In this document: positions 132 to 166 of the stretch, piece by piece
Position numbering within the stretch: position 1 is the first letter of the stretch
Layout of the letters: each line of letters opens with the position of its first letter
Source: a virus
Taxonomy: Duplodnaviria > Heunggongvirae > Uroviricota > Caudoviricetes
Virus record (IMG/VR): IMGVR_UViG_2740892369_000030
DNA: 5,162 nt
Strand: one strand, 5' to 3'
The notes under the pieces: model-generated
Database searches by the model: none
Seen by the model: only the letters and a program-made list of their open reading frames with translations
Told to the model about the DNA's origin: nothing
Position numbers and translations under genes: made by a program

Positions 132-166
132 ATCACCTGTAAGATACTGAAATAAAACAGGTGATG
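132..166. promoter_or_regulatory. Perfect 9-bp inverted repeat ATCACCTGT-N17-ACAGGTGAT; candidate dimeric protein-binding site
   Basis: Arms at 132..140 and 158..166 are exact reverse complements; a further half-site CAGGTGA lies at 84..90. The 17-bp spacer is too long for a typical intrinsic terminator. Confidence 0.4.

Follow-up and report, generated by a model that had tools for sequence, protein, structure and literature searches.

Headful-packaging phages such as P1, with its hexamer repeats, and SPP1, with its pacL and pacR boxes, carry packaging (pac) sites made of multiple short repeats that are bound by the small terminase. In the transposable phage Mu, the pac site was reportedly mapped by Groenen and van de Putte in 1985 between the transposase-binding sites L1 and L2, and from that work together with the study of Harel et al. 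in 1990 it is said to occupy approximately nt 32-54. Here we analyse a 5,162-nt stretch of DNA from a virus of the Caudoviricetes (IMG/VR record IMGVR_UViG_2740892369_000030; the window, meaning the whole stretch), which covers the left end of a Mu-like prophage of the Sp18 type in Escherichia coli. Mu DNA is packaged from its left end and carries 50-150 bp of attached host DNA (PMC5977238; PMC2837660), and the protein HU acts in the L1-L2 spacer of the Mu transpososome (PMC3145075). In the corresponding spacer of the window, positions 105-165 form a block that is conserved, restricted to the left end, independent of the repressor and transposase genes and co-varying with the small terminase gp27; as judged from comparison of sequences, this block, including the palindrome within it, is probably a pac site read by gp27.

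A palindrome between L1 and L2 of the Sp18-type element

The window matched, at 97-100% identity, a Mu-like prophage that is present at many sites in Shiga-toxin-producing E. coli, among them Sp18 in O157:H7 Sakai and copies that lie inside Shiga-toxin (Stx) phages. The element starts at window position 78 (TGTAACC...), because the sequence shared with other genomes begins at 71-78 and the DNA flanking it there is unrelated. Its left end comprises the following features.

1-77, unstranded: host or flanking DNA outside the element, with IS66-family/ISCro1 sequence; flanks in other genomes are unrelated
74-77, unstranded: target bases adjoining the left end (ACAT), within the flanking DNA
78-104, plus strand: left terminus (TGTA...) and L1 transposase-binding site, including CAGGTGA at 84-90 and the core TTTGATACC at 95-103
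105-165, plus strand: conserved spacer block and candidate pac site, with GTGAA-like repeats phased at about 10 bp and AGGTGA copies; diversity about 0.03 for its parts
125-138, unstranded: inner palindrome AGGTGA-AA-TCACCT, in which the left arm faces the fourth AGGTGA copy
132-140, unstranded: left arm ATCACCTGT, exact reverse complement of the right arm
157-165, unstranded: right arm ACAGGTGAT, final part of the conserved block, invariant in 15 haplotypes
166-188, unstranded: hypervariable part of the L1-L2 spacer and start of the mosaic immunity module; diversity 0.46
189-198, plus strand: core of the L2 transposase site (ATTTGATACC; TTTGATACC at 190-198)
241-250, plus strand: core of the L3 transposase site (TTTTGATACT; TTTGATACY at 242)

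An earlier note on this DNA had described a perfect 9-bp inverted repeat near the element end. The left arm at 132-140 and its exact complementarity to ACAGGTGAT stand as described; the right arm, given as 158-166 with a spacer of 17 bp, in fact lies at 157-165 and the spacer is 16 bp. The arms can be lengthened to 11 matches in 12 (129-140 and 157-168), and a copy of AGGTGA at 125-130, the fourth in this region, had been overlooked. The note had also rightly placed the repeat between recurring 10-mers, which are the cores of the transposase sites L1, L2 and L3; the arms lie between the L1 core at 95-103 and the L2 core at 190-198, inside a conserved block of 88 bp. Beyond the two arms, ACAGGTGAT did not occur anywhere in the 39,970-bp element (full length in LC727881), and a search of the right end, which the note had proposed, returned no copy of the palindrome there; CAGGTGA was absent from the last 300 bp of the element.

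The note had counted CAGGTGA at 84-90 as a third half-site of the same system. The motif is present there, 3 bp before a copy of ATTTGATACC (94-103, in L1), and is inside L1 and missing from R1. AGGTRA at this position is common to the L1 sites of palindrome-less relatives that have Mu-type packaging genes, and it is mutated in 6 of 15 haplotypes of the Sp18-type left end. It belongs to the L1 transposase site and not to the palindrome system.

A perfect 9-bp inverted repeat with a spacer of 3-40 bp was found in 49% of dinucleotide-shuffled windows and, by the same criterion, in 3.7% of shuffles of the 253-bp left-end region. Four copies of AGGTGA within 82 bp occurred in 0 of 2000 shuffles when that hexamer was specified; when any hexamer was allowed, 5.7% of the shuffles did as well. 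The statistics of the sequence alone are marginal, the inverted repeat by itself being weak evidence, and therefore the case for function rests on comparison with other elements.

Conservation of the block adjoining L1

E. coli genomes and IMG/VR contigs yielded 15 different haplotypes of the Sp18-type left end, which aligned without gaps over 185 bp. Nucleotide diversity was 0.035 in the conserved block (element nt 1-88, window 78-165) and 0.46 in the remainder of the L1-L2 spacer (element nt 89-111, window 166-188), where 20 of the 23 columns were variable; it was 0.109 in the L2 core (element nt 112-122, window 189-199) and 0.055 in the L3 core (element nt 164-173, window 241-250). Both arms were retained in all 15 haplotypes, the right arm without any change and the left arm with a single one, T to C at its innermost base in one haplotype (ATCACCTGC), which was uncompensated. 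Within the block the arms were not better conserved than the rest (1 of 18 positions variable, against 11 of 70). The distance between L1 and L2 was 95 bp in every haplotype.

In every variant the block stopped where the right arm stops, and divergence started 1-3 bp beyond it; in the most divergent variant, STEC299, the alignment ended at element nt 88/89 and restarted inside the transposase gene. This sharp edge at 165/166 is the start of a mosaic immunity module, and the repressor gene is replaced by unrelated regulators in variants that retain the palindrome.

The module itself (166 to about 1390 in the comparison with elements L006-L013) consists of the remainder of the left-end spacer, L2, L3, the repressor gene, the operators, ner and the start of A. 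It is swapped as one unit among at least five types, with the L2 and L3 cores kept in every module and the left boundary always 1-3 bp past the right arm of the palindrome.

Spacer type follows gp27 type in mosaic relatives

Flanking end sites and transposase genes assort independently of the spacer among mosaic relatives of the element. The co-variation set was composed of elements with a readable left end and a scoreable gp27, with Salmonella and Serratia prophages collected through homologues of B; the elements as listed were 13 left ends of the Sp18 type, 3 further elements with GTGAA-type spacers, and 6 each of the GATCT and Mu types. The 23 elements that supplied both data all fitted a match of three spacer types to three gp27 types, each spacer type occurring in two to four end-site contexts.

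GTGAA/AGGTG spacer: gp27 residues about 56-66 read LS-x-A-x-ISR; Sp18 type (13 scored), L232, L237 and L240; end-site contexts TTTGATACC, Mu-family L1 (Salmonella, Serratia) and TTCAAGATAA
G(G/T)GATCT spacer: gp27 reads LSRGAVWR; L233, L234, L245, L235, L238 and L239; end-site contexts Mu-family L1, TTCAAGATAA and TTTGATACC
GGGAT (Mu-type) spacer: gp27 reads LSRSGLNR; Mu, YpM5, L044, L228, L054 and L230; end-site contexts Mu, TTTGATACT and TTCAAGATAA

Four further spacers were read without a gp27, two of them GATCT-type (L060, L246) and two with a Mu-type block (L004, L056).

Individual mosaics separate the spacer from its neighbours in several ways. The Yersinia phage vB_YpM_5, an isolated plaque-forming phage, has an Sp18-family transposase that is 77% identical to that of the window and 31% identical to MuA. 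Together with L044 and L228, which likewise have an Sp18-family transposase (77-78% identical), it has TTTGATACT end sites, gp26, gp27, large terminase (TerL) and portal proteins 98-100% identical to those of Mu, and the Mu spacer sequence CCGGGAGGA..CGGGATyTGATGGGAT; the spacer adjoining L1 reads CCGGGAGGAAAGTGGATCAAACGGGATTTGATGGGAT in vB_YpM_5 and CCGGGAGGACATTGGATTATTCGGGATCTGATGGGAT in Mu. A Mu-type block with a gp27 99-100% identical to that of Mu was found not only with TTTGATACT sites (L044, L228) but also with TTCAAGATAA, a third site type (L054, L230). Element L239 has three TTTGATACC cores at the 95/52-bp spacing of the window, yet carries a GATCT-type spacer and the matching gp27. 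L232 and L233 share their L1 type and have 93%-identical transposases, but neither their spacer types nor their gp27 types agree. Salmonella gp27 proteins 85-88% identical to that of Sp18 read LSSAAISREAA in this region (P0064-P0075).

We then counted, over 12 loci, the alignment columns that split the GTGAA type from the rest. Six of the 193 columns of gp27 did so (32, 58, 59, 61, 62 and 99), four of them within residues 58-62; transposase A had 2 of 680, and gp25, gp26, GemA and Ner had none. Pfam assigned gp27 to Phage_Mu_Gp27 alone, and no solved homologue was found for it. It is a guess from these columns that residues 58-62 might contact DNA.

The phage vB_YpM_5 (L227, MT374853; 4560-8023 and 17220-21298) is a chimera that combines a repressor, ner, transposase and end sites of the Sp18 family with a B and, among the assembly genes checked, a gp26, gp27, large terminase and portal that are 98-100% identical to those of Mu. 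Because it pairs a Mu-like B with an Sp18-family transposase, MuB is apparently able to work with a transposase only 31% identical to MuA.

Anatomy of the spacer

The block contains GTGAA-like units at 117-121, 127-131 and 147-152 and a weaker one at 137-142, with a phasing of about 10 bp; A3 tracts at about 120, 130, 141 and 150 are spaced at roughly the same interval. Across five GTGAA-type spacers from four end-site contexts, GTGAA at 117, GTG.AA at 127 and TGAA at 148 form an invariant skeleton. The Salmonella relatives L240 and L232 have a direct AGGTGAAA at the place of ACCTGTAA in Sp18; the direct third unit of the Salmonella relatives reads ATCAGGTGAAA, its Sp18 counterpart being ATCACCTGTAA; the left arm looks like the third repeat unit turned round. 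The right arm is an additional distal copy, present, among the GTGAA-type spacers compared, only in the Sp18 lineage. Judged by these alignments, the palindrome reflects how this lineage arranges a repeated unit and is not the conserved core of the site, and the best reading of its arms is as Sp18-specific inverted copies of a phased GTGAA/AGGTGA repeat that the terminase would bind.

The block as a candidate packaging site

Two properties to be expected of a pac site were found in the block: it is confined to the left (repressor) end, between L1 and L2, and its sequence changes with the type of terminase in 23 of 23 elements, across transposase and end-site contexts. From these patterns we infer that gp27 would bind the repeats and that packaging would need the block. 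Late in infection, gp27 (the small terminase; Pfam Phage_Mu_Gp27) would bind the array of short repeats that adjoins L1 at the left end, the units GTGAA/AGGTGA lying about one helical turn apart (117, 127, 137, 147) with a distal copy at 159-164, and two facing copies would yield both the 9-bp inverted repeat and the tighter AGGTGAAATCACCT palindrome. Once bound, the terminase would cut beyond the left end, in host DNA, and packaging by the headful mechanism would run rightwards, as in Mu. Both the Mu-type and the GTGAA-type spacers have repeats phased at about 10 bp adjoining L1, a spacing that would suit an oligomer around which DNA is wrapped.

Several observations weigh against a pac site read by gp27. 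The Sp18-type spacer and the Mu-type block showed no similarity when aligned, although such dissimilarity is to be expected if the specificities differ. The conservation of the 88-bp block is about that of the neighbouring non-immunity genes in the Sp18 lineage (85-97% identical). The palindromic arrangement is found only in that lineage and the other GTGAA-type spacers have direct repeats, for which reason the symmetry of the repeat may be unimportant. Furthermore, gp27 is not alone in having type-separating columns, B having 3-5 of them (5 of 310); overall gp27 identity fails to split GTGAA from GATCT types, which only a few residues do; and the co-variation amounts to three types and perhaps 7-10 independent mosaic events, with relatedness not fully controlled.

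A bolder version, which we regard as unlikely, makes the inverted arrangement itself functional and specific to Sp18. Two gp27 assemblies would sit head-to-head on AGGTGAAATCACCT and the distal arm, looping the 16-bp spacer; a single 60-bp element would set packaging specificity and also bend the L1-L2 spacer for assembly of the transpososome; and transposition and packaging would thereby be coupled at the left end. More widely, the three spacer types and gp27 residues 58-62 would constitute a code from which the DNA recognition of this terminase family, so far without description, could be read.

Alternative explanations

The symmetry could be functionless, the block being kept for another reason (recent common ancestry, or L1 plus a signal for packaging or something else) and the repeat being an accident of AGGTGA-like units. 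The presence of a 9-bp inverted repeat in about half (49%) of the shuffled windows would fit this, as would arms no more conserved than the remainder of the block (1/18 versus 11/70 variable), GTGAA-type spacers that lack the palindrome, and a block diversity equal to that of the non-immunity genome; but in every immunity variant conservation stops with the final base of the right arm, one hexamer occurs four times in 82 bp, and such a repeat was seen in only 3.7% of the shuffled left-end regions, and we give this explanation a small chance. Somewhat more doubtful is a role in the architecture of the transpososome, in which the spacer would be bent or factor-bound DNA joining L1 and L2, as with HU in Mu, and the palindrome would be the site of a dimeric bending protein. 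The location between L1 and L2, the stretch bound by HU in Mu (PMC3145075), the A3 tracts phased at roughly 10 bp and the strict 95-bp distance between L1 and L2 in 15 of 15 haplotypes are all in keeping with it. However, L232 and L233 come from the same host species and have 93%-identical transposases and the same L1 type but unrelated spacers, and the spacer type tracks gp27, encoded 13 kb away, rather than the transposase or the host. The earlier note had suggested a part in end-complex architecture; this finds no support, given the lack of the palindrome at the right end and in vB_YpM_5 and L239, relatives that use TTTGATAC sites without it. The arms also lack a match to the IHF consensus (WATCAANNNNTTR), for which no match with one mismatch or fewer was found within 105-170, the matches that were found being no commoner than in shuffles. 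The block may nevertheless have a second, architectural role beside that of a pac site. The arms were rejected as transposase end-binding sites; they do not match the TTTGATACY core and are confined to the left end, and relatives keep the sites without the palindrome.

Two further explanations draw on the nearby leftward repressor gene. A site at the element end for the repressor or Ner, or a piece of a promoter directed leftward or outward, would account for a dyad-symmetric site near that gene, and minus-strand positions 105-76 hold a weak sigma-70-like match that points outward. Such a role, which the earlier note had also put forward, is very improbable, and a repressor or Ner operator was rejected because the identical block is common to elements of different immunity types, with at least five unrelated repressors (19-32% identical) and Ner proteins 36-55% identical; the actual operator-like element, a 12-bp perfect inverted repeat at 948-978, differs in sequence, and promoter matches (3, against 2.0 in shuffles) were not in excess. 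We attach just as little credence to an RNA-level reading, in which the leftward repressor transcript would finish in a hairpin or terminator or the repeat would belong to a small RNA. The minus-strand RNA has a folding energy of -13.4 kcal/mol (z = -4.6), but its loop is 16 nt, it has no U-tract, and it was not called in the terminator scan; a better terminator-like hairpin lies at 336-309, at the repressor stop. The only substitution in the arms breaks a pair and is uncompensated, the hairpin is retained downstream of unrelated repressor genes, and a search of positions 1-1100 with Rfam covariance models gave no match at E <= 1. The 16-nt loop and the lack of a T-run do not agree with an intrinsic terminator, which has a G+C-rich stem, a short loop and a T-run, and the earlier note's preference for a protein-binding site over a terminator is borne out by these observations. 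A small open reading frame behind the strong AGGAGGTGA (123-131) was likewise discarded, with no start codon at a usable distance and frames of 7 codons only.

Element ends, neighbouring genes and other repeats

The TTTGATACY core occurs at 95, 190 and 242 at the left end and in three copies at the right end, and at both ends the first core ends 26 nt from the terminus. In three complete insertions the termini were 5'-T(G/A)TAACC...GCGCTATA-3', with TA and not CA at the right end, and the target duplication was inferred to be 4 bp (CATC, TTAG, TACG); 5'-TG...CA-3' ends with a 5-bp target duplication were ruled out by the same insertions. The element starts with TATAACC instead of TGTAACC in 6 of the 15 left-end haplotypes. 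Because these haplotypes occupy different insertion sites, the TA-ended form appears to be mobile. The positions concerned in these observations on the ends are window 78-81, 1499 in both L006 and L007, 3300-3320 in L241 and 5130-5150 in L242. A scan of genome contigs returned two loci only, both with different end sites, and a gapped search of viral contigs for the TTTGATACY pattern returned mostly chance matches in repeats of unrelated viruses.

The gene order of the window is that of Mu.

328-858, minus strand: repressor-like gene of the immunity module; RefSeq coding sequence WP_000077537.1 at the equivalent place
1049-1297: ner
1299-3389: transposase A
3460-4392: B

Other repeats were observed between these genes. 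The repressor-ner intergenic region has, within 936-981, a perfect 12-bp inverted repeat, ACCAAAAATACC and GGTATTTTTGGT (948-959 and 967-978), with an extra CCAAAATACC at 941-950; it has GGTAT in common with the end-site core and is likely an operator or enhancer. A direct repeat shortly before ner, ATATCCGC at 1001-1008 and again at 1013-1020, is a candidate Ner site, and GGATATCCG...GGATATCCGCGCGGGTAA is kept in a 76%-related Shigella/E. coli element (L004, 2690-2712) in which the rest of the region differs. In a Salmonella-type element (L057, 560-700; IMG/VR 2563367009_000005), the repressor-ner intergenic region has several TTTGATAT units resembling the core TTTGATAC, which may hint that a transposase-binding enhancer overlaps the operators, as in Mu. 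Between the stop of A (3389) and the start of B (3460) there is a hairpin with 12-nt arms (3396-3407 and 3414-3425, 11 of 12 paired), followed at 3436-3444 by a perfect minus-strand end-site core, GGTATCAAA; this intergenic feature (3396-3444) could be an internal transposase-binding site or an attenuator. In the STEC299 prophage (L012, 24013-24100), RefSeq annotates a 'tRNA-OTHER' between the virion morphogenesis and minor head protein genes.

Significance

Any Mu-like phage is expected to have a packaging signal at its left end, and none had so far been noted in this phage group; the mildly new points are the repeat unit, the inversion of units in the Sp18 lineage and the correspondence of three spacer types with three terminase types. 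The palindrome itself is a modest, lineage-specific detail of an otherwise expected element. Sp18-type prophages are common and mobile in Shiga-toxin-producing E. coli, occupying many chromosomal sites, some inside Stx phages, and knowledge of their packaging signal would explain which elements a helper phage packages and transduces, permit the design of mini-elements and aid the marking of prophage boundaries. Furthermore, the natural mosaics provide a set of predictions on how the small terminases of the Mu family read DNA.

Comparison with known systems

The candidate pac site of Sp18 resembles that of Mu in its position immediately inside L1, at the left end only, and in the set of genes that accompanies it, gp27, TerL and the portal protein of the Sp18 type being 57%, 73% and 59% identical to those of Mu. 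Each has about four repeats phased at about 10 bp, those of Mu being GGGAGG, TGGATT, GGGATC and GGGATT at nt 32, 42, 52 and 62. In contrast, the two are without sequence similarity, the unit being GTGAA/AGGTGA in Sp18 and GGGAT in Mu; two of the Sp18 units are inverted and form a palindrome, which Mu does not have; and the conserved block of the candidate site is about 60 bp long, compared with about 40 bp common to Mu-type spacers. Like the Sp18 block, the pac sites of P1 and SPP1 have a 5-7 bp motif repeated several times across tens of bp, with part of the copies inverted, but their terminase families are unrelated to gp27, and those phages package from concatemers, whereas the Sp18-type phage would package from integrated copies with a cut in host DNA. 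The HU-bound spacer of Mu has the same location between L1 and L2. Whereas HU binding is not sequence-specific, the Sp18 sequence is strongly conserved and varies with the packaging genes, not with the transposase.
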